DNA of 64,000 nt from Nitrospirota bacterium (GCA_021789215.1 JAJYJS010000006.1:25875-89874); one strand, 5' to 3'; shown: positions 21,997 through 37,995, counted from the first letter of the stretch. The notes: generated by a model from the sequence alone, not told the origin. Numbers and translations are program-made.

Positions 21997-22000
21997 GAAG

Positions 22001-22276
22001 ATGAGCGGGGCGATAACGGCAAAAAATAAAAACCTCGATATGAGGCTCATCAGGGACCTGCTCAGGCAGAAGAGGCGCTACGAGGCCTACTTCAAGGGGC
22101 GCGAGTCGGCGGGGCAGCAGATAGACAACTCCGCGCTCTCGGCCTACACGGGGGTCATCAAGACGGCGGCGGAGCTTTACAGGAAGGTGAAGACGGAGGA
22201 AAGGGGCGCAAGCCAGGAGGAGCTTGCTGCCATCGCGAGGGAGATACTTGAGAACGACTATGGAGTGCGGCGATAG
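22001..22276 (+). CDS. Hypothetical protein; positional candidate for the small terminase subunit
   Basis: 91 aa, basic and helical. Its stop is directly adjacent to the terminase large subunit start (TAGATG). Confidence 0.35.
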   Translation: MSGAITAKNKNLDMRLIRDLLRQKRRYEAYFKGRESAGQQIDNSALSAYTGVIKTAAELYRKVKTEERGASQEELAAIAREILENDYGVRR

Positions 22277-23650
22277 ATGAGCATACTGCTGCCGTACCAG
22301 AAAAGGTGGCTTGAGGACAGGAGCCCGCGCAAGATATGGCTTGCCGCGAGGCAGACCGGAAAGTCCTTCTCGCTGGCCCTTGAGGCCGTGATGGAGGCGC
22401 TTGAGAAAAGGCGCTCCACAAGCCTCGTCCTTTCTGCGTCGGAGAGGCAGTCCAGAGAGGTAATGGAAAAGGTGCTGACCCACCTCCGGTACCTCCACGC
22501 GCGGTCCGGGGAGAAAGTGTCCTCCGAGGATACCCGCGAGGAGGTGCGCCTGCCAAACGGTTCCCGCATAATATGCCTCCCGGCAAATCCGGACACGGTG
22601 CGCGGGTTTTCGGGCAACGTGTTCCTGGACGAGTTCGCCTTCCACAAGGATGCGGAGGAGATATGGCGCGCGATGTACCCCGCCGTGACCCGCGGCTTCA
22701 AGGTGCGCGTCTCCTCCACCCCAAACGGCAAAAACAGGAACCTTTTCCATGCCCTCTGGAGCCGTGAGGAAAAAAACGGTCTTTTCTCCCGCCACAGCAC
22801 CACCATTTACAAGGCCGTGGACGAGGGGCTCCCCATAAATGTGGACGAACTGCGGGCGGGGATAATGGATGCCGCCTCGTGGGCGCAGGAGTACGAGTGC
22901 AGGTTCCTTGACGAGGAGACCTCCTTCATCCCGTATGAACTGATAACGGCCTGCGAGGATGAAGGGGCGGCGAAAGACCTGAAGCCACTGGATACCGGTT
23001 TGCACCGGTATGACGGACAAAAAGATTTAAGCAGCCATTCCGGAGGCAGTAATCCGGAATCCAGCGGCTTTAAAGGTGACTTCTACCTTGGCCTGGACAT
23101 CGGACGCAGACACGACCTCACCGTCTTCTGGCTCTGGGAGAAAAAGGGAGACGTTTACTGGACGCGGATGGTGAGGGAGTTGAGGAACACCCCGTTTTCC
23201 ATACAGAGGGATTTTCTGTACGCGCTGATGGAGGGCTCCCTTGGCGTAAAGGTGAGGCGGGCGGCGATAGACGCAACGGGCATCGGGGCCCAGATGGCCG
23301 AGGAGGCGATTGACAGGTTCGGCCCCGTGGTCGAGCCCGTGCAGTTCACGCTCAATGTGAAGGAGGATTTGGCAGTGAGCCTCCGCAGGCTCATGGAGGA
23401 GCGCCGGGTGCGCATCCCCTCGCGGGCCGGCATACGGGAAGACTTCCACAGCATAAGGCGCGTCACGACCCCGGCGGGAAACACGCGCTTCAGCGCGGAA
23501 GGCAGTGATGACGGACATGCAGACAGGTTCTGGGCGGCGGCCCTGGGCATACACGCGGGCAAAAAGGCCCCCGCAACAGTCTTCGAGTACGAGGCCGCGG
23601 GGCGGAGGACATTTTTTCCAAGCAGCTTTAAAGGGCTTTTTTCTGACTGA
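22277..23650 (+). CDS. terL: Terminase large subunit
   Basis: N-terminal LLPYQKRWLED, Walker A AARQTGKS, Walker B VFLDEFAF, and a C-terminal nuclease-like region with acidic residues. 457 aa. Confidence 0.9.
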   Translation: MSILLPYQKRWLEDRSPRKIWLAARQTGKSFSLALEAVMEALEKRRSTSLVLSASERQSREVMEKVLTHLRYLHARSGEKVSSEDTREEVRLPNGSRIICLPANPDTVRGFSGNVFLDEFAFHKDAEEIWRAMYPAVTRGFKVRVSSTPNGKNRNLFHALWSREEKNGLFSRHSTTIYKAVDEGLPINVDELRAGIMDAASWAQEYECRFLDEETSFIPYELITACEDEGAAKDLKPLDTGLHRYDGQKDLSSHSGGSNPESSGFKGDFYLGLDIGRRHDLTVFWLWEKKGDVYWTRMVRELRNTPFSIQRDFLYALMEGSLGVKVRRAAIDATGIGAQMAEEAIDRFGPVVEPVQFTLNVKEDLAVSLRRLMEERRVRIPSRAGIREDFHSIRRVTTPAGNTRFSAEGSDDGHADRFWAAALGIHAGKKAPATVFEYEAAGRRTFFPSSFKGLFSD

Positions 23651-23665
23651 AAGGAGGCTGATAAA

Positions 23666-24847
23666 TTGAAGACCAGACCAGTCCTGGACGAGATAGCCGG
23701 AGCCAGGAACGACATATCGCTCTTTGGTGATTTCCTGCCGAAAAATGTTTTGCGGAACCCGGACAGGCTCCTGCGGTCAACCGGGAAGGGTATCGGGCTT
23801 TACGAGGAGCTTCTCTACGACCCCCAGGTGAGGGCATGCCTCCAGACCAGGAAGCTTGCGGTCGTGGGCAGGGAATGGGAGGTGGTGCCGGGGGGCGGAG
23901 CCCCGGAGGACGCCCGCATCGCGGACTTCGTGAAAGAGGCCCTGCTTGCCTTCGACTTTGACAGCGCAAGGACCGCGCTCCTTTCCGCCGTGGTGCTTGG
24001 CTTCAAGACGGCGGAGATAATGTGGGAGTATTCGGAGGGCTCCGTCTGGATAAGGGAGATGGCCGGAAGGGCCTCAAGCAGGTTCCGCTTCGACGCAGCG
24101 GGAAACCTGAGGCTCCTCACGCCCGGCAATATGTTTTACGGAGGCCCCGTGCCGGAAAGGAAGTTCCAGGTGTTCCGCTATGGGGGCGAAAACGGCTCGC
24201 CTTACGGCGACGGGCTTGGGGCAAGCCTCTACTGGCCCGTATGGTTCAAGAAGAACGCTCTCCGGTTCTGGATGGTGTTCGCGGAAAAGTTCGGCTCGCC
24301 CACCGTCATAGGCAAGTACCCGCCCGGCACGCCCAGGGAGCACCAGGACGCGCTGATGGGCGCGCTTGAGGCCATACAGCAGGAATCGGCGATAAAGATA
24401 CCGGAGACGATGCGGATAGAGCTGCTTGAGGCGCAGAGGAGCGGCGCCGTGAACACCTACGACACCCTTTGCGCGTTCCTCAACGGGGAGATCGCGAAGC
24501 TCCTCCTGGGGCAGACACTGACGACCGAAATCGGGCAGACGGGCTCCTACGCGGCAAGCAGGACGCACAACGAGGTGAGGATGGACTACATAAAGGCCGA
24601 TGCCGACCTGCTCTCGGGCGCGCTGAACAGGCAGCTTGTAAGATGGCTGGTCGATTTCAACTTCCCGGCCCCGAGGCCCGCCTCGCGCTACCCGAAACTC
24701 TGGATAAGACAATCGGGCGAGGAGGATTTAAAAGCCCTTGCCGAGAGGGACGCGCTGCTTCTCAAGATGGGGGTAAAGATCCCGGCCAGGTATTTTTACG
24801 GGACCTACGGCCTGCCCGAACCCGCGGACGGGGAGGAGACGCTTTGA
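23666..24847 (+). CDS. Portal protein, Mu gp29-like (DUF935 family)
   Basis: TTG start with AAGGAGG 8 nt upstream. LYEELLYDPQVRACLQTRKLAVVGREWEVVP fits the DUF935 pattern, and it sits right after terL. Confidence 0.8.
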   Translation: MKTRPVLDEIAGARNDISLFGDFLPKNVLRNPDRLLRSTGKGIGLYEELLYDPQVRACLQTRKLAVVGREWEVVPGGGAPEDARIADFVKEALLAFDFDSARTALLSAVVLGFKTAEIMWEYSEGSVWIREMAGRASSRFRFDAAGNLRLLTPGNMFYGGPVPERKFQVFRYGGENGSPYGDGLGASLYWPVWFKKNALRFWMVFAEKFGSPTVIGKYPPGTPREHQDALMGALEAIQQESAIKIPETMRIELLEAQRSGAVNTYDTLCAFLNGEIAKLLLGQTLTTEIGQTGSYAASRTHNEVRMDYIKADADLLSGALNRQLVRWLVDFNFPAPRPASRYPKLWIRQSGEEDLKALAERDALLLKMGVKIPARYFYGTYGLPEPADGEETL

Positions 24848-25239
24848 TAAGGATATCGATGAGCGGCGGGGAGATAGCGCGCTCCATCTCCCAAAGGGCT
24901 GGAGACCTTGGCCCGGCGCTGGAGCAGATAGGCGCAATGCTTGCCGGGTCCGTGCGGAGAAACTTTGACGAGGGCGGAAGGCCCGAAAAGTGGGAGCCGC
25001 TTAAAGGGAAAAACGCGGCGAGGACGCCGCTGGTCAAAACGGGCGGCCTCAGGGACTCCATACGGGCGGCGCTGGAAAACGGGGCCATAGAACTTCAAAG
25101 CCCCCTGCCCTATGCGTCTTTTCAGCAGGAGGGGACAAGGACGATACCCGCGAGGCCGTTTCTCGTGGTGCAGGAGGAGGACTACGAAAAGGCGGGGCGG
25201 ATAATAGCGGGATACCTTATGAAAGGAGGGGACGAGTGA
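24844..25239 (+). CDS. Virion morphogenesis protein, Mu gpG / P2 gpS-like
   Basis: WEPLKG...LVKTGGLRDSI...LPYASFQQEGTRTIPARPFL matches the tail_comp_S/gpG family pattern. TTGA overlap with the portal; ATG 24859 is an alternative start. Confidence 0.8.
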   Translation: MIRISMSGGEIARSISQRAGDLGPALEQIGAMLAGSVRRNFDEGGRPEKWEPLKGKNAARTPLVKTGGLRDSIRAALENGAIELQSPLPYASFQQEGTRTIPARPFLVVQEEDYEKAGRIIAGYLMKGGDE

Positions 25240-26114
25240 TGTGGACGGCGGTTTTCAAGTCAGGCACTCACACGGATTCGGAGGGCAGGACGAGGCACTG
25301 GAGCGACGAGGACCTGGACAGGATCGCCTCGCGGTACGACCCGGCGCGGCACGAGGCCCCGGTGGTCATCGGCCACCCAAGGGACAACGCGCCCGCATGG
25401 GGCTGGGTGGAGGGGCTGAAGAGAGAAGGCGGCCTGCTCTTTGCGAAGCTCAGGCTTGTGCCGGAGTTCGCGGAGATGCTAAGGAAGGGGCTTTTCAGGA
25501 AGCGCTCCATCTCGCTCTATCCGGATATGGGCCTGAGGCACATAGGCTTTCTGGGCGCGGCCGCGCCCGCCGTAAAGGGGCTGCCGGATGTCAGTTTCTC
25601 CGCCGGGGAAGACGCGACCGGCGTGGAAGTCGAATTCAAGGGAAAGGAGGCGAAAGAGATGAACGGCTTTATCGAGAGGCTTAAAAAATTTTTAAAAGAG
25701 GAGCTTGGCATCGAGACTGCCGATTTGAGGCAGAAGGAAAAAGAACTGGCGGACAGACAGGGCGCGCTCCGCAAGGCGGAAGCGGCGGCCTTCTGCGAAG
25801 GGCTCCTGAAAGAGGGCAGGGTCACGCCGGCCATGTTGAAGCAGGGGCTCCCAGGCTTCATCGAGGTGGTCTCAGGCATCCAGACCAGCCACGAGTTTGC
25901 CGGGGGCGAAGAGGCCCGGAGCCCGCTGGATTTCCTTAAAGGCTTTCTGAAGGCCCTGCCCGTGTGCGTGAGCTACCAGGAACACACGCCCGCACAGGAA
26001 GAACCCGATGAAAAAAGAAAGAGGCTCATCAGCCGGTACATGGAAGACCACGGCAGGCACACCTACAGGGACGCGCTCATCGCGGTATCGAAGGAACACC
26101 CGGAACTTTTTTAA
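25236..26114 (+). CDS. Capsid scaffolding / maturation protease protein (P2 gpO- / Mu gpI-like)
   Basis: The N-terminus FKSGTHTDSEGRTRHWSDEDLDRIASRYDP...VVIGHP...GWVEGLKREGGLLFAKL parallels the P2 gpO N-terminus as I recall it. The C-terminal half is a charged coiled coil. Confidence 0.7.
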   Translation: MMWTAVFKSGTHTDSEGRTRHWSDEDLDRIASRYDPARHEAPVVIGHPRDNAPAWGWVEGLKREGGLLFAKLRLVPEFAEMLRKGLFRKRSISLYPDMGLRHIGFLGAAAPAVKGLPDVSFSAGEDATGVEVEFKGKEAKEMNGFIERLKKFLKEELGIETADLRQKEKELADRQGALRKAEAAAFCEGLLKEGRVTPAMLKQGLPGFIEVVSGIQTSHEFAGGEEARSPLDFLKGFLKALPVCVSYQEHTPAQEEPDEKRKRLISRYMEDHGRHTYRDALIAVSKEHPELF

Positions 26115-26149
26115 GGAACGCGGGGGAGTTAAAAAACAAGGAGGGAAAA

Positions 26150-26578
26150 ATGATAGGACAGACATCTGGGATTGAGAAGGCGGCAAGGTGCGCCGCTCCC
26201 GTTGCCACCGCGTACACGATAGCGGCGTTCGGCGCGGATGACGACACGCTGGCCATCGCACAGGCCGGAACCGGCGCGCTGGTGGGAGTGTTCCAGCACA
26301 CGACCTCAACCGCCGGAGAGACCGTGAGGGTGATGCTCACGGGCATCTCCCGCGTAGTGCTCGGCGGGGCGGTGACGAGGGGCGACAGTGTCACCTCCGG
26401 CGCAAGCGGCATGGGGGTGGCCGCGACAAGGCACGCCCATACGGAAAACACCGCGGCGGCTTACACGCAGAACGCGGCCACACAGGCCGCGCCCGCCGTC
26501 AACACCCTGGGCGTCGCGCTTGCAAGCGGGGCCGCAGGGGACATCATACCCGTGCTGCTTTCCCAGGGCATGGTCTAA
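26150..26578 (+). CDS. Head decoration protein (DUF2190-like)
   Basis: 142 aa, Ala/Gly/Thr-rich, with GD.V motifs (VTRGDSVTSGASG). It lies immediately upstream of the major capsid gene, the usual DUF2190 position. Confidence 0.6.
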   Translation: MIGQTSGIEKAARCAAPVATAYTIAAFGADDDTLAIAQAGTGALVGVFQHTTSTAGETVRVMLTGISRVVLGGAVTRGDSVTSGASGMGVAATRHAHTENTAAAYTQNAATQAAPAVNTLGVALASGAAGDIIPVLLSQGMV

Positions 26579-26609
26579 AAACCCGGAAAGAAAGGAGGCG
26601 CGAATAAAA

Positions 26610-27539
26610 ATGCCTGAAACGAAATCGCTTCACGTGGACGCAATACTTTCAGAGATGTCCGTAAAGTACAGGAACGAGGCTATGATATGGCCGCTCCTCA
26701 TGCCAGTTGTGAAGGTGCAGAAGCGCTCTGACAAGTTCTTCGTCTATCAGAAGGAGGACAGCTACCGCCTGGCCGATGACGCCGTTGCGCCAAAGGGCCT
26801 GCCCAACGAGATAACATGGGGGGTGCTGGAGGACAACTACTCGGTGGTCGACCACGCCCTTGGCGACTGGCTCCCGCAGGAGGTGATAGACAACGCCGAC
26901 GGCCCCATCCAGCCCGAGGCCGACACGGTGGACTTCCTTAACATGCTCCTGGACGTGAGGCAGGAAAAGAGGGTGGCCGATATCGTCTTTTCCCAGGCTA
27001 CCTACCCGGCGGGCAACCAGACCGCCCTCTCCGGCACCGCCCAGTGGGGCGGCACGACGGACGACCCCGTGGGCGACGTTATGAACGCCGTCGAGGGGTG
27101 TTTCATAAGGGCCAACACGCTGGTGTTCGGGGCCGAGGCGTGGGCCGCGTTCAGGAAGCTTCCGGAGGTGCTTGAGGCCGTCAAGTCCGTGAACACGGGC
27201 GCAAACGGGTTCGCCACGGCCGGCGAGGTCGCCGCCCTCTTCGAGGTGGAGCACGTGCTTGTTGGGAGGGCGCGCTACATCACATCCAAAGAGGGGCAGC
27301 CGTCCGCTTACACAAGGCTCTGGGGCAAACATTGCGCCGCGCTCTACACGGCCAGTAACCCCGGCCTGAGGAGCATCACCTTCGGGCTCACCTTCTCCGA
27401 GATGGCGCGCGAGGTCCAGAGGGACTTCGACCCCAAGCGCGGCGTGAAGGGCGCTCACTATATAAAGGCCGCCTGGAACTCCGACGAAAAGGCCGTCGCG
27501 CCGGAGCTGGGCTGCCTGATAAGAAACGCCGTGGCGTAA
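26610..27539 (+). CDS. Major capsid protein (HK97-fold, gpE-like family)
   Basis: The start is trimmed to MPETKSLHVDAIL... with AAAGGAGG upstream. 309 aa. The position after scaffold and decoration fits, and it is followed by a strong stem-loop. Confidence 0.8.
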   Translation: MPETKSLHVDAILSEMSVKYRNEAMIWPLLMPVVKVQKRSDKFFVYQKEDSYRLADDAVAPKGLPNEITWGVLEDNYSVVDHALGDWLPQEVIDNADGPIQPEADTVDFLNMLLDVRQEKRVADIVFSQATYPAGNQTALSGTAQWGGTTDDPVGDVMNAVEGCFIRANTLVFGAEAWAAFRKLPEVLEAVKSVNTGANGFATAGEVAALFEVEHVLVGRARYITSKEGQPSAYTRLWGKHCAALYTASNPGLRSITFGLTFSEMAREVQRDFDPKRGVKGAHYIKAAWNSDEKAVAPELGCLIRNAVA

Positions 27540-27559
27540 AAAAACAAAAAAACTTCCGG

Positions 27560-27588
27560 GCGGGGCGGTTTTTTAATCGCCGCCCCGC
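27560..27588. other. GC-rich stem-loop downstream of the capsid gene
   Basis: GCGGGGCGG-N11-CCGCCCCGC. On the plus strand it is flanked by A-runs, and the T-tract is on the minus strand. Confidence 0.6.
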
Positions 27589-27628
27589 ACTCTCAAAAAA
27601 AACTCAAAAAGGGGAAAAAAGAAAAAAG

Positions 27629-28036
27629 ATGGCATACTGCACGCACTCCGATATCGCAAAGACAGCCCCGGAGGAAGACCTCATCGCCCTCACCGACGAC
27701 GAGAAACTGGGTGTGGCAAACGAGGAGCGCATCACCGGCGCAATCGAAAGGGCGGATTCGCTGATAGACGCCTACTGCAGGCAGGCCTATGGCGTGCCGT
27801 TTACGCCCGTGCCCGAGCTGATAAAATCCCTCTCGGCCGACATCGCCCTTTACAACCTATACACAAGAAAGGTGGACGCGGTGCCCGAGGCGCGCTCCCA
27901 AAGGTACAGGGACGCCCTCTCCGTCCTCGATGCAATCGCAAAGGGCACCATGCCGCTTCCCCTGGCCGGAAACGGCGGCCCGGAAAGCAGCGCCGCGGAA
28001 AAGGTCTTCACGGACGAGGGCCTCGGAGGGTACTGA
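27629..28036 (+). CDS. Head-tail connector protein, Mu gp36-like (DUF1320)
   Basis: MAYCTHSDIAK...LIALTDDE...RADSLIDAYCRQAYGVPFTPVPELIKSLSADIALYNLY parallels the FluMu gp36 pattern. Confidence 0.75.
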   Translation: MAYCTHSDIAKTAPEEDLIALTDDEKLGVANEERITGAIERADSLIDAYCRQAYGVPFTPVPELIKSLSADIALYNLYTRKVDAVPEARSQRYRDALSVLDAIAKGTMPLPLAGNGGPESSAAEKVFTDEGLGGY

Positions 28037-28362
28037 TGCTTACGATAATCGAGGGGGACCGGGTGCTGCTTGAGTACCAGCTCCTTAAAGACAGGAAGCC
28101 CGTAAACATCAAAGGATGCACCTTCATGCTCCGGGTTAAGCGGAGGCCGGAGGCGCGGGCAAAGGCGCTCCTGCCGCCGGTCAGGGGCTCAATCAGAAAC
28201 GCGAGGGCGGGGAGGTTCGCGTTCCTCCTGGAAGGGGCGGCCCCCGCAAGCGGGTTCATGGAGATAACGATGGAAAGGCCCGGCAGAAAGATAAGGCTCA
28301 CCCCGCCGGGGGGCGTTGAGATAAAAATAACCGGAAAAGAGGGGCAAGGGAGAGGGGAATGA
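28036..28362 (+). CDS. Hypothetical head-tail joining protein
   Basis: 108 aa. The start overlaps the previous stop (TGATG), and there is an ATGA overlap with the next gene. Confidence 0.4.
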   Translation: MLTIIEGDRVLLEYQLLKDRKPVNIKGCTFMLRVKRRPEARAKALLPPVRGSIRNARAGRFAFLLEGAAPASGFMEITMERPGRKIRLTPPGGVEIKITGKEGQGRGE

Positions 28363-28787
28363 AATTCGGGGACATGGAGGAAAAAATCCTCGCGGCGCTT
28401 GAGGGCGGCCTGCCGTATCTGAAAACCGTCGGCACATACGCGGGGCAGTTCGAGGCGGACGTAAAGACGATGCCCGCACCGTTTCCCGCGGCATATGTGG
28501 TCTACAGGGGCTCCTCTTTCGAGCCGGTGGACTCGGCAAACCATATGGAGACGGCGGACTTCACGGTGCTTGCGGCCGCAAGAGGTTTTTCAGGGGGGGA
28601 AGACCTCAGAAAATCGGGATACGGCATCTACCGGATGACGGACGACATCATCCTCACGCTCACCAACCAGAGGTTCGGCCTGGATATCGCGCCGGTAAGG
28701 CCGCTCAGGCTCTCGCTGGTCTTCGCCTCGAAGACCGTTGCCGTTTACGCGGTGGACTTCCGCACAAGCTTCGACAGGACATTTTAA
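28359..28787 (+). CDS. Mu gp37-like protein (DUF1834), head-tail joining / tail completion
   Basis: 142 aa. LPYLKTVGTYAGQFE...PAAYVVYRGSSF...FTVLAAAR fits the gp37 family as recalled. Its position after gp36-like also fits. Confidence 0.6.
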   Translation: MKFGDMEEKILAALEGGLPYLKTVGTYAGQFEADVKTMPAPFPAAYVVYRGSSFEPVDSANHMETADFTVLAAARGFSGGEDLRKSGYGIYRMTDDIILTLTNQRFGLDIAPVRPLRLSLVFASKTVAVYAVDFRTSFDRTF

Positions 28788-28807
28788 TCAGGAGGTGAAA
28801 TAAAAAC

Positions 28808-29851
28808 ATGGGCGCAACAGGCACCGAATCAAGGGCGGCATTCCGCAGGGCGGCCTCGTGGGGCACGCCATCGGCAGCGGGCGCGAATGACGGACTGCTG
28901 GTCCTGCCGCACACGCTGAAGAAGGAAAGGCCCGTCCTGCCGGACGACTCCCTCGGCATCTGTTTTCAGACCGATGCGGCGGACGGCGGCATCAAGGTCG
29001 AGGGGGACATCCCGGCATATCTCAGGTACGACTCCCTGGACCTTCTGCTTGCGCTTGCGATGGGGCAGACGGCGGGCACTCCGGTACAGCAGGGCGCAGC
29101 GGAGGCGTATCTCCAGAGCCTCAAACTGAAGGAGAACACGGACGGGCTTTTCGGCACGTTTTGCGTCAGCAACGGCGTGAACATAGACGAATACGGCTCC
29201 GTGAAGATAACAGGGTTCACGATAAAGGGAGAGGCGGGGAAACCGGTCGAGATAAGCTTCCACTCGGTCGCAAACGACAGGACAACAAATTCGGCCCTCA
29301 ACACAACGGCCTCGTTCGCGGCAGTAAGCCTCTTCGAAAAGGCCAACCGGGTGCTATTCAGCCAGGGCGTCTTCCGGCTGAACCCGCAGGCGGACGCGGC
29401 GCTCGCGGACCCGGACAAAATCTACCCCTCCGCATTCGAGCTTTCCTTCAAGAGAAAAATGAAAGGGATATACGGCGCGGGCGCGCAGGCGGACAGGGTA
29501 GACGAGCCCTCCAACGACGGCCAGCCGGACATAAGGCTAAAGCTAACGTTCCCCAGGTATACCCAGGCGGCAAAGGGGTATTTCGAGGACTGGGACACGC
29601 AGAGGAACAAAAAAATGGACGCCGTCTTCACGGGCGCGCAGATAGCGGCCCCGTACAACAGGTTTATGAGGCTCCAGCTTCCGAACCTCAAGTTCTCGCA
29701 GGTGGAGCTGCCAATGGAAAGGGGCATCCTGAAAAGTCCGGTGGAGTTTGTCTGCCTCGGGTGCGATACAGCACCCGCGGGCATGGCGGGCATAACGATG
29801 CCCTTCCAGATAGACCTCATGAACCGCCAGGGCACGGACGTGCTGGGGTAA
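28808..29851 (+). CDS. Major tail (tube) protein, non-contractile type
   Basis: 347 aa with AGGAGG upstream. It is the first large ORF after the connectors and directly precedes the frameshifting chaperone pair. There is no separate sheath plus tube pair. Confidence 0.55.
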   Translation: MGATGTESRAAFRRAASWGTPSAAGANDGLLVLPHTLKKERPVLPDDSLGICFQTDAADGGIKVEGDIPAYLRYDSLDLLLALAMGQTAGTPVQQGAAEAYLQSLKLKENTDGLFGTFCVSNGVNIDEYGSVKITGFTIKGEAGKPVEISFHSVANDRTTNSALNTTASFAAVSLFEKANRVLFSQGVFRLNPQADAALADPDKIYPSAFELSFKRKMKGIYGAGAQADRVDEPSNDGQPDIRLKLTFPRYTQAAKGYFEDWDTQRNKKMDAVFTGAQIAAPYNRFMRLQLPNLKFSQVELPMERGILKSPVEFVCLGCDTAPAGMAGITMPFQIDLMNRQGTDVLG

Positions 29852-29956
29852 AGGTGTGGACAGGGGGCTGCGCCTCCAATCCCCCTCGTTTAACGGCGGA
29901 AAGGCGGTACGAAAAATCCAAAAAGACAGGGCGCAGCAAGCGGCGCCCCTACGGAA

Positions 29957-29992
29957 CCCCTCGCCCTTAAAGGCCGGGGGTGAGGGAATGAC
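29957..29992. repeat. GC-rich palindromic repeat ending GGAATGAC inside the tube-chaperone gap
   Basis: CCCCTCGCCC-TTAAAGGCC-GGGGGTGAGGG-AATGAC. The 175-nt non-coding gap is unusual in an otherwise overlapping gene array. Confidence 0.6.
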
Positions 29993-30026
29993 AGGGCCAA
30001 GGCAATAAAAAGGAGGTCTTTCTTTA

Positions 30027-30404
30027 ATGGAGATAGGAGGGTTGCAGCGCGGCGATTTCGCGGTATGGATGCCCTTCGGCCAGGACGCCGAGGTGCTGAT
30101 ACGCTACGTGGACCGCGAGGAGCTTGAGGAGATAAGGAGAAAATCGGCCACAACAAGATGGGACGGCAGGGGCAGCGTGGAGCATACGCTTGACTATTTG
30201 CAGGCGGACATCCTGCTTGGACGCGCTTCAGTGCGGGGCTGGAAAGGTTTTACCGCAAACGGCGAGCCCTTTCCCTACAGCGGGGAAAACCGCGATTTCC
30301 TCATGAGAAAAAGCGTGGAGTTCGCCCGCTTCGTGAACTCCGCCTGCATGGACATGCAAAGACTTGCCGGACAGGAGCGGGCGCAGAAGAGAAAAAACTC
30401 CTGA
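30027..30404 (+). CDS. Tail assembly chaperone (lambda gpG analogue)
   Basis: 125 aa with AAGGAGG upstream. It ends 4 nt after a slippery heptamer, and a second frame continues to the tape-measure start. Confidence 0.7.
   Translation: MEIGGLQRGDFAVWMPFGQDAEVLIRYVDREELEEIRRKSATTRWDGRGSVEHTLDYLQADILLGRASVRGWKGFTANGEPFPYSGENRDFLMRKSVEFARFVNSACMDMQRLAGQERAQKRKNS
30392..30398 (+). promoter_or_regulatory. Programmed -1 ribosomal frameshift slippery heptamer A_AAA_AAC
   Basis: The zero frame reads AGA AAA AAC TCC TGA. The -1 frame from 30392 is open (KKLLSHIRARLDYPGVACANC...) through to the stop at 30704-30706. Confidence 0.7.
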
Positions 30405-30706
30405 GCCACATCAGGGCGAGGCTCGATTACCCTGGTGTGGCGTGCGCGAACTGCATGGACATGGAGGAAAAGGACGGGGCTGTGCCCCCGTGCAGGGGCG
30501 AAGGAGGCTGCCCGGTGCCTGCCGTCTCACCCGGCGAGGAGCGCATCCTCCAGATGAGGTCCACGCTTATAAGGCTGAAGGGGCTTGCGTGCGCCGGGGC
30601 CATACTGGGCGCATACGGGGCGGCAAGGGAGGATTTGGAATTCCTGGCATTTATCGAATCGGAGCTGAGAGAGATGAAAAAGGAGGACAAACAGCAAAAT
30701 GGCTGA
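30392..30706 (+). CDS. T-extension of the chaperone (gpGT analogue), reached only by -1 frameshift
   Basis: The -1 frame has no stop between 30392 and 30706. Its end overlaps the start of the tape-measure-position gene by 8 nt. It contains CX2C-X12-C-X5-C. Confidence 0.6.
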   Translation, partial: KKLLSHIRARLDYPGVACANCMDMEEKDGAVPPCRGEGGCPVPAVSPGEERILQMRSTLIRLKGLACAGAILGAYGAAREDLEFLAFIESELREMKKEDKQQNG

Positions 30707-31250
30707 AATAAAGCTCACCATAGAGGCCGAGGACAGGGCGTCGGACGTCTTTATGGCGGTAGCGGGCGCGGTGGACAACATAGGCTCCGCCGTCTCCGAC
30801 GCCGCCCTGAGGACTGGTTCTCTGGGAGACGCGCTCGACGCACTGCCGCTCTCGAAAACCCTTTACCTGGACGTCTCGGAGGCGGTGCAGGCGGCAAGCG
30901 CGGTCTCCGCCGCGCTGGAGTCCATCCCGGACATCTCCTACAAGGACGTAATCCTCAGGTACTTCACGCAGGCCTCCCCGGTGATGCCGTTTTCGGAGGG
31001 AATGGAGATGATCGGCCTCAAGATGAAATCGCTTCCGGTGGAGACAACCCACACGGTAAGGTTTTTTACCGGCCTTGACGGCGGCGCACAGCCAACGGTA
31101 AAAGGCGGCGGCAATATCAGCATCGGCCCGTTTTACTTTAACGGCAAAAATCCGCCTGAAGCCTTGCAGATAGAGGCCCAGATCGCGGACTCGATAAAAT
31201 CGGGGCGGAGCCCGATCGTGGCGGCCTTGGCGAAAGCGGGAATAAAATGA
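30699..31250 (+). CDS. Tape-measure-position protein, unusually short (183 aa)
   Basis: It lies immediately after the G/GT pair and has an Ala-rich helical N-terminal half (AVAGAVDNIGSAVSDAALRTGSLGDALDAL...AVQAASAVSAALESI). Confidence 0.5.
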   Translation: MAEIKLTIEAEDRASDVFMAVAGAVDNIGSAVSDAALRTGSLGDALDALPLSKTLYLDVSEAVQAASAVSAALESIPDISYKDVILRYFTQASPVMPFSEGMEMIGLKMKSLPVETTHTVRFFTGLDGGAQPTVKGGGNISIGPFYFNGKNPPEALQIEAQIADSIKSGRSPIVAALAKAGIK

Positions 31251-31268
31251 AGAGGATTTTTTTCACGG

Positions 31269-31295
31269 GTCATACCGGCGAAGGCCGGTATCCAG
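31269..31295. repeat. Palindromic repeat, hairpin type (GTCATACCGGC-GAAG-GCCGGTATCCAG)
   Basis: The same hairpin occurs at 20327 and 46958. It translates to the pseudo-peptide VIPAKAGIQ and generates the spurious ORF 31247..31441. Confidence 0.85.
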
Positions 31296-31368
31296 TGATG
31301 TTGAGGCATGCCGGAATGACCGGAAAAATTATACTCAGGGGCGCTGCTTGCTGCGCCCGGTCTTTGCA

Positions 31369-31442
31369 GTCATTGCGAGGAGCGGAGCGACAAAGCAATC
31401 TGAAGGCCTGGGGCCGGATTGCTTCGCTTTGCTCGCAATGAC
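31369..31442. repeat. Palindromic repeat, long type (GTCATTGCGAGG...GCAATC // GATTGC...CTCGCAATGAC)
   Basis: 74-bp inverted-repeat element. A related copy lies at 49879..49963. Confidence 0.85.
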
Positions 31443-31458
31443 GGGGAGAAAAACACAT

Positions 31459-32835
31459 ATGAAATCCTGCTATCAAAACATTTTGGAGACCTCGGCCGTC
31501 ACGCTTTCCTCCGGGGCGGCGGACCTCTCGTACCCGCTCTACAGGCTCTGGGACAGGGACATAGGGCGGCCCTTCAAGGCGGCGGACACGGGCACCCTTG
31601 AGATAAAAATAGACCAGGGCGCGGCCCCGCTTGCCATAGACAGGCTCATTATTCCGGCGGGGCACAACCTCTCCGGCGCAAGGCTCAAGGTGAGCGGCTC
31701 CGACGACGATATAACGTACAGGACCCTGCTTGACGCCTCTCTGCCGGACAACTCTCTTATAAACAGGGAACTTGCCGCAGCGGACGATTTCAACAACAGC
31801 TCGCTGGATGCAAACCTGTGGGGCCTGCTCCTGGGGGGCGGCGCAGGGGCCGTGGCGAGCGAGACCACATCACTTGATTTAAAGACGGCCCAGGCGGCCG
31901 AATACTCCGCCATATGCCTTAAGACCGCATTCGCCAGGGCGGCGGGCCAGTCCCCGCAGACAATAACAAATACGCTTGGCGTGGGAGCCAACGCGCTGTA
32001 TTCGCTTAGCCTCGTGCGCTCCGCCGCCCTGCCCTCAGCCGCCTTCGACAGCTGGGCGCAAAGGGTGGTGCTCACACGGGTAACCTCGGCCGGAAACCTC
32101 CAGTTCGTGTACTACGGCGCAAACGGGACGACATATTACTTCAACGGCGCAAGCGGCCAATGGGGCACCCCCATGAACGATGCTTACACGGCAGCCCTTA
32201 ACAGGCGGCTGCGAATCCGCCTTGAAAACAGCGGCTCCGCGTGGAGGCTCACTCTCCGCGACAACTCCAATGCGGACGCCCTCCTCAGGCAGACCCCGTG
32301 GGTGGGCTGGGCGGACACTTACGCGGACGGCACACCGGAGTGGCTCATAGCCGGCGACCCTTCGAACTCATTCAACTTTGGCGAGATGAACGTTTATCTT
32401 TTCGACACGGGGCTTTCCGCGCCCGCGACAAAAAGATACATGAAGGTTGCCGTGACGGCCTCCCCTGCCACCCCGCAGATGCCGGAGCTTTTTTTAAGCC
32501 CCACCTATATCTGGGAAAAACTCCCCGCGCGTCCGGCAGGGCCGCTTGAGGACGTCTTTAACGTGGAGGCCCAGACGGCCACGAGCGGGCGCGACCACTT
32601 CCTCGTCCACGGCAGCCCCAAGCGGCAGCGGGTCTACCATGTGACAAACGCCGGTTCCGCGCAGTACGCAAGCATAAAGGCGCTCTGGGGCGCGTGGGGC
32701 GGAGCAAAACCCTTCTGGCTCTGCGACCATGAGGGAGACTGGATTTTCGGGAAGCTCTCCCGCCCCCTAAACCTGAAGGAAGAAGGAAGCAACAAATACA
32801 GCTTCGATTTTGAATTTCTGGAGGTCCTGCCATGA
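31459..32835 (+). CDS. Distal tail / baseplate-type protein (458 aa)
   Basis: The start is trimmed to MKSCYQNILE, because the track start at 31348 reads through the repeat element. It follows the tape-measure-position gene and has an ATGA overlap with the next gene. Confidence 0.5.
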   Translation: MKSCYQNILETSAVTLSSGAADLSYPLYRLWDRDIGRPFKAADTGTLEIKIDQGAAPLAIDRLIIPAGHNLSGARLKVSGSDDDITYRTLLDASLPDNSLINRELAAADDFNNSSLDANLWGLLLGGGAGAVASETTSLDLKTAQAAEYSAICLKTAFARAAGQSPQTITNTLGVGANALYSLSLVRSAALPSAAFDSWAQRVVLTRVTSAGNLQFVYYGANGTTYYFNGASGQWGTPMNDAYTAALNRRLRIRLENSGSAWRLTLRDNSNADALLRQTPWVGWADTYADGTPEWLIAGDPSNSFNFGEMNVYLFDTGLSAPATKRYMKVAVTASPATPQMPELFLSPTYIWEKLPARPAGPLEDVFNVEAQTATSGRDHFLVHGSPKRQRVYHVTNAGSAQYASIKALWGAWGGAKPFWLCDHEGDWIFGKLSRPLNLKEEGSNKYSFDFEFLEVLP

Positions 32836-35183
32836 CCACCGTCTCTCAGGCGCGGGACTCCTCGCGCATAAGGCCCGTCTACCTGGTGGAGATAACGCTG
32901 GGGAACTCCGGCCCCACGCTCTATTTCTCCGACCGGAACCTGACCGTGGCCGGGCAGATATACGAGGACTACCTGGCGGACCTCTCGGGCCTGGGCGACG
33001 AGGTGCACCGCGCGGACTCAAGCGCCCTGAACTCTGACATCACCCTCACGTTCAAAAACGGCAGGATAAGCCGCCTGGGCACGGACTACAACTACCTCAT
33101 CGAGCTGGGCGGCACCTACCCCTTCGAGGCCGCCATCTGCCAGATATCGGAGACATACCTTGACGACGCGGGCACCCCCTCGGACACGGCCCTTATCTTC
33201 AAGGGGGCGCTCGATTCGCCCTCCGATATAGACCTGATGGGTTTCAAGTGCAAGGTAAGCTCGATGGCCTTCCTCATGGACAAGCGATGGGCGCAGTCCC
33301 AGATAAACCTGACGGACTACCCCAACGCTTACGAGGACGTGGGCAAGTACGAGCCCATAGTCTACGGCCGGAACATCCTCATGCCCGCCCTCCGGACGGA
33401 CTGGGGCGCGAAGACAACCTTGGTTGCCGACATCACGGCCGCGCAGATGACGCTGGAGCTTTCGGACGCCTCGCGCTTCCCCGCCTCGGGCGACATCGTG
33501 ATAGACAGCGAGCAGATACACTACACATCGAAGACGGGCAACGTCCTCAATATCTACCAGAGGGGTGCGGGGGGCACAACGGCCCAGCCCCATGGGGCCG
33601 GGGCCGACGCCTGGCAGTACCAGGCGGCCTACGACAGCCTGCTTGCGGGCCACCCGCTGGCAAGTGTGGGGGACGTCTTCGCGGAGATAGCGGGCAAGTT
33701 CTGGAGGGTGACAAGCGGGGTGACCTCCGTGGTGGTGAACGGCAAGCAGGTCCTCCGGGCCACGGATGTCCTCAGCGTGAGGGGCGCGATAGACAACATG
33801 AGCATCACGGACGGGATAACGATAAACGACGGGATATCGGTCTCCCAGGGCTCCCACAGCCACAATATCGGCGGGCTCACGAGCACCATCTATGGCAATA
33901 ACGCCTCCAGTTACGGCCAGCACAACACGGCCGTCCAGGGGGCCCTCACGAACCTCTATGACACAAACCAGGGCACATACTGCTATTCGGGCAAGGCCGA
34001 CAGCTTCACAGGCTGGTTTACCGTGACGGTGAACTTCCCAGCCTATTCCGGCCCGGCCCCCTCTGCCGTGAGGGTGTGCATCACGCACCAGAGCTGGAAT
34101 AACGGCAGCACGGGCAATGACTATGTACGGCTGACCTATCCGCAGACGATAAACCTGGACAAGTCCAACACCAAGGTCACGCAAAAGTTCAACGTGGGGA
34201 CCACGGTGCCCGCGGCCGCCACCTATATCGTCGACTGGGACGGCTCGACAAGCCAGGCCTGGGGCTATGTCTTTGAGATTTGGCTGGAGATAGACACGGC
34301 CGCCACGACGTCGAACCCGGCCGCGGGGGTTGCCAAGAGCGGCACGGTCTCGAAATCGGGCACGGTCTCGATGAGCGGCGAGGTCGTCTCCACCCACACG
34401 GTGGAGCGCCTCCATGCCGTGGTGAGCGGGTACCAGGACGACGCCCTGGGCACCTACACCGGCACGCCCTTAGCCGTCATCGAGCAGCCCAATCACGTGT
34501 TCAGGCACTTCCTCGCGGCCCTCACCGGGCTCTTTCCCACGACGGACATAGACTTCCACGTGGCCGGGGCGCTCTATGCCTCATGGGGCTACAAGTTCGC
34601 CTTCGTGATAGACGGCCAGATAAGGCCGTGGGACTTCCTGAAAAAACTCGCCTTCGAGTGCCGGAGCACGCTCTCCTATCAGGCGGGCCTCTGGAGCCTT
34701 GAGGCCATACCGGACGCGGCCCCCGCCCCGGTGAAGACCGTCTCGAAGGATGATTTGGCCGGGCAGTTCGCCAAGTTCAAGTTCGCGAAGATGCCCTGGA
34801 CGGAGCTTGCCAACAGCCTCCAGGCGAGCTTCGCCGTCCTCTACTCCCGGATACCGCAGAAGAGCGAGTCCCCGTGGCTTGGCACGGTAAAGGCCGATGA
34901 CGCGGCCTCCCAGGCCAAATACGGCAAGTACCAAAAGACATTCGAGTTCGAGGCTGTGCGCGACCAGGCGATGGCCCAGAGTGTGCTTGGCCACATCCTC
35001 ACCGAGCTTAAAACCCCGCTCATGACCGTGGAGTTCCCCGTCTTCTGGGAGGACTTCGGCCTGAACGTGGGCGACACTGTGCAGATAGACAACCCGCTCT
35101 ACGGCGGCAGGCTCTTCTTCATCGAGAAGATGGCCCGCCAGAGCCCCTCCACCGCCCTCATCACGGCAATGGAGTGGTGGTAG
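32832..35183 (+). CDS. Large tail tip / host-specificity-type protein (783 aa)
   Basis: It is the last and largest ORF. The N-terminus is RIRPVYLVEITLGNSGPTLYFSDRNLTVAGQIYEDYL, there is an internal Ser/Thr/Gly/Asn-rich beta region, and a triple (K/M)SG(T/E)VS micro-repeat. Confidence 0.55.
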   Translation: MTTVSQARDSSRIRPVYLVEITLGNSGPTLYFSDRNLTVAGQIYEDYLADLSGLGDEVHRADSSALNSDITLTFKNGRISRLGTDYNYLIELGGTYPFEAAICQISETYLDDAGTPSDTALIFKGALDSPSDIDLMGFKCKVSSMAFLMDKRWAQSQINLTDYPNAYEDVGKYEPIVYGRNILMPALRTDWGAKTTLVADITAAQMTLELSDASRFPASGDIVIDSEQIHYTSKTGNVLNIYQRGAGGTTAQPHGAGADAWQYQAAYDSLLAGHPLASVGDVFAEIAGKFWRVTSGVTSVVVNGKQVLRATDVLSVRGAIDNMSITDGITINDGISVSQGSHSHNIGGLTSTIYGNNASSYGQHNTAVQGALTNLYDTNQGTYCYSGKADSFTGWFTVTVNFPAYSGPAPSAVRVCITHQSWNNGSTGNDYVRLTYPQTINLDKSNTKVTQKFNVGTTVPAAATYIVDWDGSTSQAWGYVFEIWLEIDTAATTSNPAAGVAKSGTVSKSGTVSMSGEVVSTHTVERLHAVVSGYQDDALGTYTGTPLAVIEQPNHVFRHFLAALTGLFPTTDIDFHVAGALYASWGYKFAFVIDGQIRPWDFLKKLAFECRSTLSYQAGLWSLEAIPDAAPAPVKTVSKDDLAGQFAKFKFAKMPWTELANSLQASFAVLYSRIPQKSESPWLGTVKADDAASQAKYGKYQKTFEFEAVRDQAMAQSVLGHILTELKTPLMTVEFPVFWEDFGLNVGDTVQIDNPLYGGRLFFIEKMARQSPSTALITAMEWW

Positions 35184-35273: not shown

Positions 35274-35490
35274 AATGCAAGGAGTTTTTTATATTCTCAT
35301 TCGCTCGCTTGCCCCTGTGGCAAACCACAGGGAATACGCTCGCTATCCATTTATGATTATCATGAAAGTTTGAAACTCCCCGTTCAGGCTTTTCTCAAGC
35401 TTAAAATCACAGCCTAAACGTATTCAAGGTTATAAGGACAAATTTCATAAGTGGTTGTATACTTTGGGAGAGAAACCTGGGGAGGTAAGA

Positions 35491-35964
35491 ATGAGTCATA
35501 CGTGGAAACCGGTGTTCGTCGTTCTCGCTATTCTGGCGGCTATTTTTATTGCCAGAACAATCATCGTACCGCCTAAGTTCGGCATCTGGGAAAGCGGGTA
35601 TATGTACGGCTGGCACAACAAGGCAAACGAGCAGTTCTGGCTGAACTACAAGGCAAAATACAAGGGCCGGGACTACTGCAACGGGTGCCATCCGGACAAG
35701 TATTCGGCCATCATGAACTCTCCGCACGCGATAATCCAGTGCGAAGACTGCCACGGGCCCGCCATCGACCACCCGGACAACCCGCCCAAGCTCGCAATCG
35801 ACAAAAGCAGGGCGTTGTGCCTGAGGTGCCATGTCAAGCTCCCGTACCCGACTTCCCACAGAAACGATCTTCCGGGCTTTCTGAACCCGGACGAGCACAA
35901 CCCGGGCATCGAATGCGTTTCCTGCCACAACCCGCACAGCCCGGTGCTAGGAGGCATGCGATGA
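35491..35964 (+). CDS. Membrane-anchored tetraheme cytochrome c
   Basis: Four CXXCH motifs (CNGCH, CEDCH, CLRCH, CVSCH) and an N-terminal TM helix VFVVLAILAAIFIA. The start is trimmed to MSHTWKP, which has GGGGAGG upstream. Confidence 0.85.
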   Translation: MSHTWKPVFVVLAILAAIFIARTIIVPPKFGIWESGYMYGWHNKANEQFWLNYKAKYKGRDYCNGCHPDKYSAIMNSPHAIIQCEDCHGPAIDHPDNPPKLAIDKSRALCLRCHVKLPYPTSHRNDLPGFLNPDEHNPGIECVSCHNPHSPVLGGMR

Positions 35965-36722
35965 ACAGAAGAAAGTTCCTGAAGATAATTGGCGGCATGG
36001 CCGCGGGCGCCGGCGCTATCGGGACGTTCAGGTTCCTGGCCCCCGGAGAGGCGGAGGCGCTCATCAAGTCGAGCAACATCAGGTGGGCGTTCCTTGTGGA
36101 CACGTACAAGTGCGTGGGATGCGGCATGTGCGTCAAGGCCTGCAAGCTGGAAAACGGCATCCCCTACGACGCCCCCGTCACGCGCACCTGGGTGGAGCGC
36201 TACGTCATCCTCAAGGACGGCGACGTGCTGGCCGACACCCCCAAGGGCGCAAGGGACGGTTTCACGTCCCCGGTCACCGAGGGCAGACAGGTAAACCCGG
36301 CCGACATCGACAAGGCGTTTTTCGTCCCCAAGCTCTGCAACCAGTGCGACAAGCCCCCCTGCGTCCAGGTCTGCCCGGTGGGCGCGACCTACCGCACGGC
36401 CCAGGGCATTGTCCTCGTGGACCGCACATGGTGCATAGGGTGCGGCTACTGCATCATGGCCTGCCCCTACGGCGTCAGGTTTTTCCACCCCGTCTACCAC
36501 ACGGCGGAAAAATGCACCTTCTGCTATCACAGGATAAACCACGGCATGACGACGGCCTGCGTCCAGGCCTGTCCGTTCGACGCCAGGAAGATAGGCAACC
36601 TGAAAGACCCCAACGACCCGGTCACAAAGGTGATAATGACAGAGAGGGTTGCCGTGCTGAAGGACGAATACGGAACGAAGCCCCAGGTCTATTACATCGG
36701 GCTCGACAGGAATGTGAGGTAA
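35961..36722 (+). CDS. Periplasmic 4x[4Fe-4S] ferredoxin-type subunit (NrfC/PsrB/HmcB-like) with Tat signal
   Basis: ATGA overlap with the cytochrome gene. Twin-arginine signal MNRRKFLKIIGG. Four Cys clusters: CVGCGMCVKAC, CNQCDKPPCVQVCP, CIGCGYCIMACP and CTFC...CVQACP. Confidence 0.9.
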   Translation: MNRRKFLKIIGGMAAGAGAIGTFRFLAPGEAEALIKSSNIRWAFLVDTYKCVGCGMCVKACKLENGIPYDAPVTRTWVERYVILKDGDVLADTPKGARDGFTSPVTEGRQVNPADIDKAFFVPKLCNQCDKPPCVQVCPVGATYRTAQGIVLVDRTWCIGCGYCIMACPYGVRFFHPVYHTAEKCTFCYHRINHGMTTACVQACPFDARKIGNLKDPNDPVTKVIMTERVAVLKDEYGTKPQVYYIGLDRNVR

Positions 36723-36729
36723 CGGAAAA

Positions 36730-37995
36730 ATGCACACTTGGTATGTACACGGCTTAGAATGGACCAGAAAAGAGCTGTTCGTCTATCCAAACGAGTATAT
36801 CTACTGGAGCATACAGATTGTGATGTACCCTCTGATGACCGGTCTCGTGGCGGGGGCCTTCGTGCTCAGCTCCCTCTATCATGTCTTCGGCCAGAAGGAC
36901 CTGAAGGACATGGCCAAGTTCGCCCTGGTGTTCTCCTTCGCCCTGCTGCTTGGCGCGCCCATACCGCTGATGCTGCACCTTCAGCACCCGCTCCGGGGGT
37001 TCTTCATCTTCTTCACGCCGCACTTCACGTCGGCCATATCGGCCTTCGGCATCGTCTACATGACCTACGCGCTCATCGTGGCCTTCGAGATATGGTTCGT
37101 CTACCGGGTGTTCTTCGTGCAACAGGTGCACGCGCTTGAAAAGAAGGAGGGCATGGGGGCCTTCCTGAAGAGGCTCATGTACAGGGTATTCACCCTGGGC
37201 GCCTACGACCTGAGCGAGAAGGCCGTGGCCAAGGACAAGAAGGTGATCAAGATACTGGCGGGGGTCGGCGTGCCCGTGGCCGCCTTCCTGCACGGCTACG
37301 CGGGCTTCATCTTCGGCTCCGTCAAGGCCAACGCCCTGTGGATGACCCCGCTGATGCCAGTCATATTCATAATGAGCGCGGTCGTCTCCGGCGTGGCGCT
37401 GTGCATGCTCACCTACATAGTCATAATGGAGTGGAAGAAGTTCCGCGCGGTCAAGGCCAGGAGCACCACCCCCGGCATGGCCCGCTACGAGCAGCTCAAG
37501 GGCGCGGAGGCGGACCTCATAAGGAAGACCTCGCGCTACCTGATATTCTTCATGATATTCGCCTTCTCGCTGGAGCTGCTGGACCTCATATTCCGTGGCT
37601 ACACCGCAGTCAAGAACTGGGACATCCTGCGCTCGGTCATCTACCAGCGGGACTATGTGGACATCTTCGTAAAGCAGTACCTCATCGGCAACATCATCCC
37701 GTTTCTGCTGCTCATCTGGCCCAGGCTCACGGTGCGCAGGGCCGCCTTCGCCACCGCGCTGGTGCTGTTTGGCGTTTACATGATGAGGTACAACGTCGTC
37801 ATCGGCGGCCAGTCCTTCTCTCTCACGTTCGCGGGCTTCATGGACTATGTGATGCCTGTCATCCCGCATAATATGGAGACGTTCAAGGAAGGGCTCCTCG
37901 GGGCGCTGACGGTGGCGATACTGCCGTTCATCTTCTTCTACTTCATAAACAAGGTCATTCCCGCAGTGCCCCAGTCCGGAGGGGAAAAGGCATAG
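36730..37995 (+). CDS. NrfD/PsrC/HmcC-family quinone-interacting integral membrane subunit
   Basis: 421 aa and highly hydrophobic, with about 10 helices. The gene order cytochrome / FeS / NrfD fits. Confidence 0.85.
   Translation: MHTWYVHGLEWTRKELFVYPNEYIYWSIQIVMYPLMTGLVAGAFVLSSLYHVFGQKDLKDMAKFALVFSFALLLGAPIPLMLHLQHPLRGFFIFFTPHFTSAISAFGIVYMTYALIVAFEIWFVYRVFFVQQVHALEKKEGMGAFLKRLMYRVFTLGAYDLSEKAVAKDKKVIKILAGVGVPVAAFLHGYAGFIFGSVKANALWMTPLMPVIFIMSAVVSGVALCMLTYIVIMEWKKFRAVKARSTTPGMARYEQLKGAEADLIRKTSRYLIFFMIFAFSLELLDLIFRGYTAVKNWDILRSVIYQRDYVDIFVKQYLIGNIIPFLLLIWPRLTVRRAAFATALVLFGVYMMRYNVVIGGQSFSLTFAGFMDYVMPVIPHNMETFKEGLLGALTVAILPFIFFYFINKVIPAVPQSGGEKA

Follow-up and report, generated by a model that had tools for sequence, protein, structure and literature searches.

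The gpG/gpGT −1 frameshift of phage lambda is conserved in long-tailed double-stranded DNA phages (Levin et al. 1993; Xu, Hendrix and Duda 2004; reviewed in PMC5009743). In lambda, two overlapping open reading frames (ORFs) lie between the tail tube and tape measure genes, the first ORF carries a slippery heptamer close to its end, the second lies in the −1 frame and lacks a start of its own, and the long and short products share their N-terminal part, with a G:GT ratio of 30:1 (PMC5009743). The same arrangement is found in the DNA analyzed here, a stretch of 64,000 nucleotides (nt) from a Nitrospirota bacterium (GCA_021789215.1, JAJYJS010000006.1:25875-89874) referred to below as the window, where a gene for a predicted tail assembly chaperone, G, ends in a slippery A_AAA_AAC and is continued in the −1 frame by a segment, T, so that slippage would produce a fusion, GT. 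Programmed −1 ribosomal frameshifting of the lambda G/GT type in a siphovirus-style tail assembly chaperone gene, as proposed in the initial annotation of the locus, is very probably the right explanation. It is supported by the anatomy of the signal, by its conservation in 19 related loci and the covariation of a downstream hairpin, by a −1 frame of coding character that has no independent start, and by natural in-frame fusions of the two parts. The arrangement is a textbook one for phages and is well evidenced here, and the covariation of the hairpin, the invariance of AAC at the slip site, the cysteine-bearing T segment, and the miniature tape measure add a modest interest.

The locus differs from lambda in several respects. 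The heptamer is A_AAA_AAC here and G_GGA_AAG in lambda, and a strong covarying hairpin of 12 base pairs (bp) begins 6 nt downstream of it, whereas the lambda site is not known to need such a downstream structure. No sequence similarity of the window proteins to lambda G or T was detected, T carries a four-Cys motif, and the tape measure has only 183 amino acids (aa). The −1 frameshift cassettes of E. coli dnaX and of insertion sequence (IS) elements are also bacterial and likewise combine an A-rich heptamer, a downstream hairpin at 5-6 nt, and purine-rich upstream stretches; the dnaX heptamer (A_AAA_AAG) ends in G rather than C and belongs to another gene context and product, and the candidate Shine-Dalgarno-like stretches upstream vary in position among the present loci. 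The frameshift of IS1 uses an A6C run. The very same A_AAA_AAC heptamer serves the g-t tail chaperone pair of the haloarchaeal virus HCTV-2 (Sencilo et al. 2013, cited in PMC5009743), which differs in its archaeal host and in having proteins unrelated at the sequence level. As regards protein families, homologs of G have precomputed matches to PF27119 (Phage_YdaY), and G itself matches the tail assembly chaperones of phrog_313.

Gene G opens with the ATG at 30027 and closes with the codons AGA (30390-30392), AAA (30393-30395), AAC (30396-30398), TCC (30399-30401), and TGA (30402-30404), as the initial annotation had read them, so that only 3 nt (TCC) separate the heptamer from the zero-frame stop. 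The register of the heptamer permits both tRNAs to re-pair in the −1 frame. From position 30398 that frame reads LLSHIRARLDYPGVACANC... (in a longer read, LLSHIRARLDYPGVACANCMDMEEKDG...) and was confirmed to stay open for 102 codons, up to a TGA at 30704-30706; the overlap of this stop with the next gene, whose ATG is at 30699, amounts to 8 nt. The joined product, join(30027..30398, 30398..30706), is predicted to have 226 aa, the length first proposed, and a mass of 25.3 kDa. The junction needs revision: it had been given as ...KRKK/LLSH, but canonical tandem slippage retains the Asn and yields ...QKRKN-LLSHIR..., which makes KN-L more likely than KK-L. The GC content of the −1 frame at the three codon positions (0.63/0.46/0.75) resembles that of the neighboring tube gene (0.58/0.45/0.79), including a coding-type value at the third position (GC3), and among three partly open frames only the −1 frame has the pattern of the window's genes. 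An ORF of 115 codons in the +1 frame (30364..30711) was considered as a coding candidate and rejected, as its GC profile (0.76/0.63/0.46) and Arg/Gly-rich translation are typical of off-frame reads. Following a stop at 30191-30193, the −1 frame of the window contains no ATG, GTG, or TTG from 30194 until the GTG at 30437.

A heptamer and an open −1 frame are, taken alone, weak evidence, hardly beyond chance. Among 2001 ORFs called in the window's own genome, 205 have an in-register XXXYYYZ within their last 15 codons, and 48 (2.4%) combine this with a −1 frame that runs open for 80 codons or more, in most cases owing to an abutting next gene. The case for frameshifting must therefore rest on other, comparative evidence. 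Three further ORFs of this genome have an in-register AAAAAAC near their end and a −1 frame open for 175-521 codons (C15:45292-45774, C36:200949-202028, and C45:174474-175451); most such cases elsewhere in the genome are probably no more than abutting genes.

Comparison drew on 19 related loci, from five metagenome contigs found by protein search, four GTDB genomes (metagenome-assembled genomes of Thermodesulfovibrio, Nitrospirae, Thermodesulfobacteriota, and Geobacteraceae), three IMG/VR entries, and eight loci in genomes related to that of the window, one among the 20 hits (L017) being a duplicate of another (L008). Their G proteins are 31-62% identical to that of the window. The arrangement is kept despite this divergence, and conservation of the heptamer, suggested earlier as a check, is borne out: a slippery run stands at the same aligned codon in 19 of 19 loci, AAAAAAC in 18 and A9G (AAAAAAAAAG) in L009, and the −1 frames are open. 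The codon 5′ of the heptamer always ends in A even though it encodes R, V, T, A, E, I, or L. Across the 16 distinct G genes, one of them that of the window, Lys is always written AAA (16/16) and Asn always AAC (15/15), whereas the most frequent codon has on average a share of only 0.63 at 22 further conserved residues of G; invariant heptamer codons beside mixed codons elsewhere argue for selection on nucleotides rather than on amino acids. The zero-frame stop lies 0, 3, 24, 27, or 39 nt past the heptamer in relatives, and the tails read in the zero frame vary in length as well as in sequence. In the −1 frame, by contrast, the peptide L-x-x-H-I-R-x-R-x-D-x-P-G-V-x-C-x-x-C is conserved, beginning with the codon directly 3′ of the heptamer and thus ahead of any start codon (alignment A3). 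By the evidence of these conserved loci, chance is excluded as an account of the pattern. Purine-rich GGAG-like stretches occur 8-20 nt upstream of the heptamer in all loci; they are not fixed in position and fall within codons for an E/R/K-rich helix, and a Shine-Dalgarno-like stimulator upstream of the heptamer is accordingly not claimed.

The homopolymeric nature of the slip site raises an alternative at the level of transcription, in which RNA polymerase would add an extra A within the A6 run and so place G and T in one frame in some mRNAs, with a junction of the form ...KRKK-LLSH.... Six A's are short for efficient polymerase slippage, for which a typical run has about nine or more A or T residues; the window and 18 relatives have only A6, and L009, with nine A's, is the sole locus whose run has a length associated with known slippage of the polymerase. 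A precedent is provided by Thermus, which has two tRNA-Lys like the present host and makes dnaX by polymerase slippage and not by ribosomal frameshifting (PMC5009743). Slippage of the polymerase would, however, have no need of the conserved final C and codon register seen in 18 of 19 relatives, nor does it have any known use for a covarying hairpin at the canonical 6-nt spacing, which is a classic ribosomal stimulator. The transcriptional account is accordingly improbable for the family, yet plausible for L009 alone.

The hairpin that the initial annotation had suggested looking for downstream of 30398 does exist, at least as a prediction that is well conserved. Its 12-bp stem, which includes one G-U pair, is formed by GCCACATCAGGG and CCCTGGTGTGGC, starts 6 nt past the heptamer, and contains the GTG at 30437 within its 3′ arm. 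A 69-nt segment folds at −27.1 kcal/mol (RNAfold; z = −2.86 vs shuffles), and an equivalent helix is found with RNAfold in most of 16 distinct relatives, for example GCUCACAUCCGGG/CCCGGGUGUGAGC and GCGCACAUCCGG/CCGGGUGUGCGC; in L009 there is a different short hairpin at the same distance from the heptamer. In an alignment of 14 sequences, standard pairs fill 87.5% of cells, vs 30-56% in controls with the 3′ side shifted by 1-3 columns, and compensatory double changes occur in 13 cells, vs 2-7 in the same controls. RNAalifold independently yields the same helix. Some of the compensatory pairs alter the amino acid on both arms, such as Ala-GCU as third residue of T paired with Ser-AGC after Val, or Ala-GCG paired with Arg-CGC, and such changes indicate a constraint of the RNA on the protein rather than of the protein on the RNA. 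A heptamer, a spacer in the canonical range of 5-9 nt, and a covarying downstream structure, the elements of a canonical −1 programmed ribosomal frameshifting cassette, are thus all present. A search of 29800-31500 against Rfam at a permissive threshold gave no family, only one chance microRNA match.

The wider family supplies natural counterparts of the predicted fusion. A profile search of 1.84 billion representative proteins returned 502 relatives of G at E <= 1e-3, of which the best 149 were examined. Within the last 22 residues, 134 of these 149 have KN (93), KK (28), or GN or GK (13), endings that at the protein level are consistent with A_AAA_AAC, A_AAA_AAR, and G_GGA_AAY sites, respectively. 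Four distant relatives among the best 149 (P0022, P0037, P0069, and P0072) are single ORFs of 203-240 aa that hold both G and T and have no KN or KK slippery dipeptide at the junction; these are natural constitutive G-T fusions. In P0069, the one chosen for detailed comparison, residues 13-112 correspond to G 19-119 (50% identity, E 1e-28) and residues 118-218 to T 1-101 (56%, E 2e-38), and the gap between the two matches is 5 residues, the same as in the predicted frameshift product. This collinearity argues that T is a C-terminal extension of G and not a free-standing protein.

The opposite possibility is that G and T are separate proteins, with T (89 aa) initiated at GTG 30437 and the heptamer incidental. 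Gene calls do contain a separate downstream ORF in four loci (L002, L003, L004, and L005), the Val of 'PGV' is encoded by GTG in most relatives, and the bare pattern of heptamer and open frame is as frequent by chance as counted above. The GTG, however, is not preceded by a Shine-Dalgarno sequence, which both G (AGGAGG) and the next gene (AAGGAGG) have, is buried in the 3′ arm of the stem, and is preceded by 13 conserved −1-frame residues, and L009 has no GTG at that position. In five loci (L008, L010, L015, L017, and L020) the −1 frame opens just 0-6 nt before the heptamer, which makes an upstream start impossible there; the window and five relatives thus agree with the observation of Xu, Hendrix and Duda (2004) that the second ORF of such pairs has no translation start of its own. 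The existence of single-ORF fusions and a heptamer that is invariant at synonymous sites also speak against separate proteins. Independent translation from this GTG, which the initial annotation had raised as a point to check, appears unlikely, and separate G and T proteins with an incidental heptamer are very improbable overall.

Least probable is gene decay: a deletion of 1 nt within an A run would have disrupted an ancestral single G-T gene, and the element would be a dead prophage remnant. The element has no integrase, replication, or endolysin genes and its tape measure is drastically shortened, single-ORF G-T versions exist, and a nonsense codon is present in G of one relative, L018. Against decay, the same 'break', at the same codon and with the same heptamer, is found in 19 loci down to 31% identity, with both frames conserved at the amino-acid level, all structural ORFs in the window are intact, and an orthologous cluster of the same architecture is present in another bacterial family; the comparative data already contradict this reading. 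Jointly, transcriptional slippage, an independent GTG start, and gene decay account for only a small part of the total probability. The nonsense codon of L018 (G005:C18), whose chaperone is nearly identical to that of L008 and L017, is a TAA within G that has left the AAAAAAC heptamer and hairpin in place, and it reflects either recent inactivation or an assembly error.

With ribosomal frameshifting as the preferred account, the identity of the proteins can be considered. G matches the PHROGs family phrog_313, 'tail assembly chaperone' (E 4.1e-6), and its AlphaFold (AF2) model, which has a predicted local distance difference test (pLDDT) score of just 74.5, resembles BFVD models annotated 'tape measure chaperone' or 'tail assembly chaperone' at E 6.9e-6 to 5e-3, with probability 1.0 and a template modeling (TM) score of ∼0.5. 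These models come from Vibrio phage JSF10 (E 6.9e-6), Salmonella phage Shivani, Proteus phage PM135, Bacillus phages, and Mu FS-gp41, and a weak fold match links G to the tail assembly chaperone of haloarchaeal virus HHTV-2 (E 0.013). Likeness to known tail assembly chaperones is found in sequence and in predicted fold. Precomputed PF27119 matches exist in the G homologs P0002-P0006, some of them marked weak; the window's G has none at E <= 0.1 in local Pfam-A. The T segment has no family or fold match in Pfam, PHROGs, or PDB (phrog_33860 is non-significant, E 0.042), and its model is helical in the C-terminal half. Residues 16-39 of T (30443-30514) hold a CxxC-x12-C-x6-C motif in the window, of which C16, C19, and C32 are invariant and C39 is present in most sequences (alignment A3). 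This four-Cys motif may be a zinc site produced solely in the frameshift product. Insertions of 20-45 aa lie between the third and fourth Cys of T in L004, L005, L013, and L016.

Several results weigh against a chaperone frameshift of the lambda type and have to be set beside this evidence. Foldseek searches of the PDB gave no significant match (best E 0.33 for G and 4.4 for T), and so do not place the proteins in the solved 'spiral' chaperone fold. Scans of G and T with local Pfam-A and NCBIfam returned no family, and tblastn of G against 50,697 GenBank phage records returned no match, so that by this search the G family is not seen in sequenced phages within those records. In view of these null searches, the naming of G as a 'chaperone' depends on PHROGs, on the likeness of predicted structures, and on synteny. 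As to the signal, the lineage of L002 and L007 has a weaker version of the hairpin, and the finding that 0 of 500 shuffles reached the observed covariation is indicative and not a probability, because the hairpin sequences are related and shuffle statistics overstate their independence. In E. coli, moreover, A_AAA_AAC is far less shift-prone than A_AAA_AAG (PMC5009743).

The last point may depend on the host. The shiftiness of A_AAG and A_AAA_AAG is tied to the single tRNA-Lys of E. coli, and E. coli tRNA-Asn permits double slippage only (PMC5009743). The present host has both tRNA-Lys(CUU) and tRNA-Lys(UUU); no tRNA-Asn was among the 32 tRNAs detected in its 89%-complete assembly. Two tRNA-Lys plausibly remove the advantage of AAG and would fit the use of AAC together with a strong hairpin in this family.

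We infer the actual occurrence of slippage, its efficiency, and the binding partners of the products along the following lines. Most ribosomes would translate G and halt at the TGA at 30402-30404, giving the 125-aa chaperone. A minority would slip while AAA (Lys) occupies the P site and AAC (Asn) the A site, at the point where the mRNA entrance meets the 12-bp hairpin; the hairpin would resist unwinding, tRNA-Lys and tRNA-Asn would re-pair one base back on AAA and AAA, and reading would resume in the −1 frame at CTC CTG AGC..., to yield the 226-aa GT (...QKRKN-LLSHIRARLDYPGV...). If lambda is taken as a guide, the G part common to both products may bind the tape measure, whose gene follows directly downstream, the T part with its four-Cys motif may recruit the tube protein, whose gene lies directly upstream, and neither G nor GT would be expected to end up in the particle.

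Features of the predicted frameshift cassette and its neighboring genes, in window coordinates
Feature	Coordinates	Strand	Basis
Tail tube (major tail) protein, 347 aa, siphovirus-type	28808..29851	+	Pfam PF18906 Phage_tube_2, E 4.9e-15
Shine-Dalgarno AGGAGG of gene G, 10 nt 5′ of ATG 30027	30011..30016	+	Sequence
Gene G, predicted tail assembly (tape measure) chaperone, zero-frame product, 125 aa, 14.4 kDa	30027..30404	+	phrog_313, PF27119 in homologs, BFVD models
Slippery heptamer A_AAA_AAC, in X_XXY_YYZ register with the 30027 frame	30392..30398	+	Sequence and comparison of relatives
T segment, −1 frame extension, 102 codons and TGA (30704-30706)	30398..30706	+	Composition, conservation, P0069 collinearity
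6-nt spacer TCCTGA, holding the zero-frame stop TGA (30402-30404)	30399..30404	+	Sequence
Predicted frameshift-stimulating stem-loop: 5′ arm 30405-30416, 13-nt loop 30417-30429, 3′ arm 30430-30441	30405..30441	+	RNAfold, RNAalifold, covariation
Tape-measure-position gene, 183 aa (miniature tape measure)	30699..31250	+	Similarity to L002 TMP_3 protein

The neighboring genes agree with the arrangement that Xu, Hendrix and Duda (2004) described, with two overlapping ORFs, G and T, between tube and tape measure genes, though the tape measure here has 183 aa. The upstream gene had been predicted to encode the tube from its position next to the cassette, and the match to PF18906 bears this out; tube homologs also stand immediately upstream of G in L002, L008, L010, L013, and L026. 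The corresponding prediction of a tape measure downstream holds as far as ancestry is concerned but not for an ordinary tape measure. Residues 1-21 of the 183-aa protein match residues 1-21 of a TMP_3 protein of 1114 aa that comes after G/T in L002 (62% identity), and residues 25-123 match its residues 744-846 (33%, E 5e-14); only these two parts of the long protein are matched, which identifies the shorter one as tape-measure-derived and drastically shortened. The collinear cluster L026, from another bacterial family, encodes a matching protein in the tape measure position in an ORF of 172 aa (8766-9284), and L008 has a 279-aa ORF (2594-3433) there; short ORFs in these two loci argue that the shortening of the tape measure was not a one-off deletion. 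A segment of ∼100 aa from the miniature tape measure (residues ∼28-132) occurs four times in the viral contig L013 (124-399, 1039-1614, 5803-6102, and 7280-7510), one copy being upstream of a Gp37-like gene, and behaves like a repeated module.

The cluster as a whole spans ∼21685-35183 (13.5 kb). It starts with genes for a winged helix-turn-helix protein, a 91-aa protein, the large terminase, a Mu-type portal, a protease, a scaffold or decoration protein, and the capsid, and continues with a Gp36 adaptor, a Gp37-like terminator, the tube, G/GT, the miniature tape measure, a 495-aa protein, and a 783-aa Phage-tail_3 protein. It is flanked by relA/spoT (18181-20325) on one side and a cytochrome/4Fe-4S (FeS)/NrfD operon (35455-37995) on the other, and no integrase, replication, or endolysin gene was found within it. 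Its GC3 equals that of the host genes. Counting the window's own genome, G is present in 8 of 41 related genomes, a patchy, prophage-like distribution.

Retention of the frameshift signal had also been taken as a sign that the tail module is still under selection. For the lineage this is shown by the intact signal and by the orthologous cluster in another bacterial family, a demonstration that does not extend to this particular host. An intact frameshift cassette beside a miniature tape measure shows that the tail module is not simple debris, and the cassette thereby bears on the question of whether the cluster makes short-tailed particles. The structural-only cluster might be a domesticated locus for a gene transfer agent (GTA)-like or tailocin-like particle, with the cassette kept by selection at the level of the host and not of the phage, and with GT, made by frameshifting alone and carrying a zinc-binding four-Cys module, acting as an assembly switch for a very short tail; this is a tentative suggestion, and a rather unlikely one as it stands.

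For annotation, G and GT are best entered together as a single ribosomal-slippage gene, join(30027..30398, 30398..30706), and the same treatment would apply to a family of ∼500 representative clusters now split by gene callers at the hairpin-buried GTG. For the biology of recoding, the family offers an invariant A_AAA_AAC and a covarying 12-bp hairpin across hosts with two tRNA-Lys genes, with rare in-frame fusions as controls, and is a convenient system for asking how the choice of shift site follows the tRNA set of the host.

A scan for promoters and terminators gave no plus-strand signal between G and the next gene, a result consistent with co-transcription and otherwise uninformative. In the collinear cluster in G013, an M15 peptidase gene lies upstream of the helix-turn-helix gene and a host PilZ gene follows the tail genes. 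The gap of 175 nt between the tube gene and G (29852-30026) contains GC-rich palindromes, including one terminator-like hairpin on the minus strand (29949-29928).

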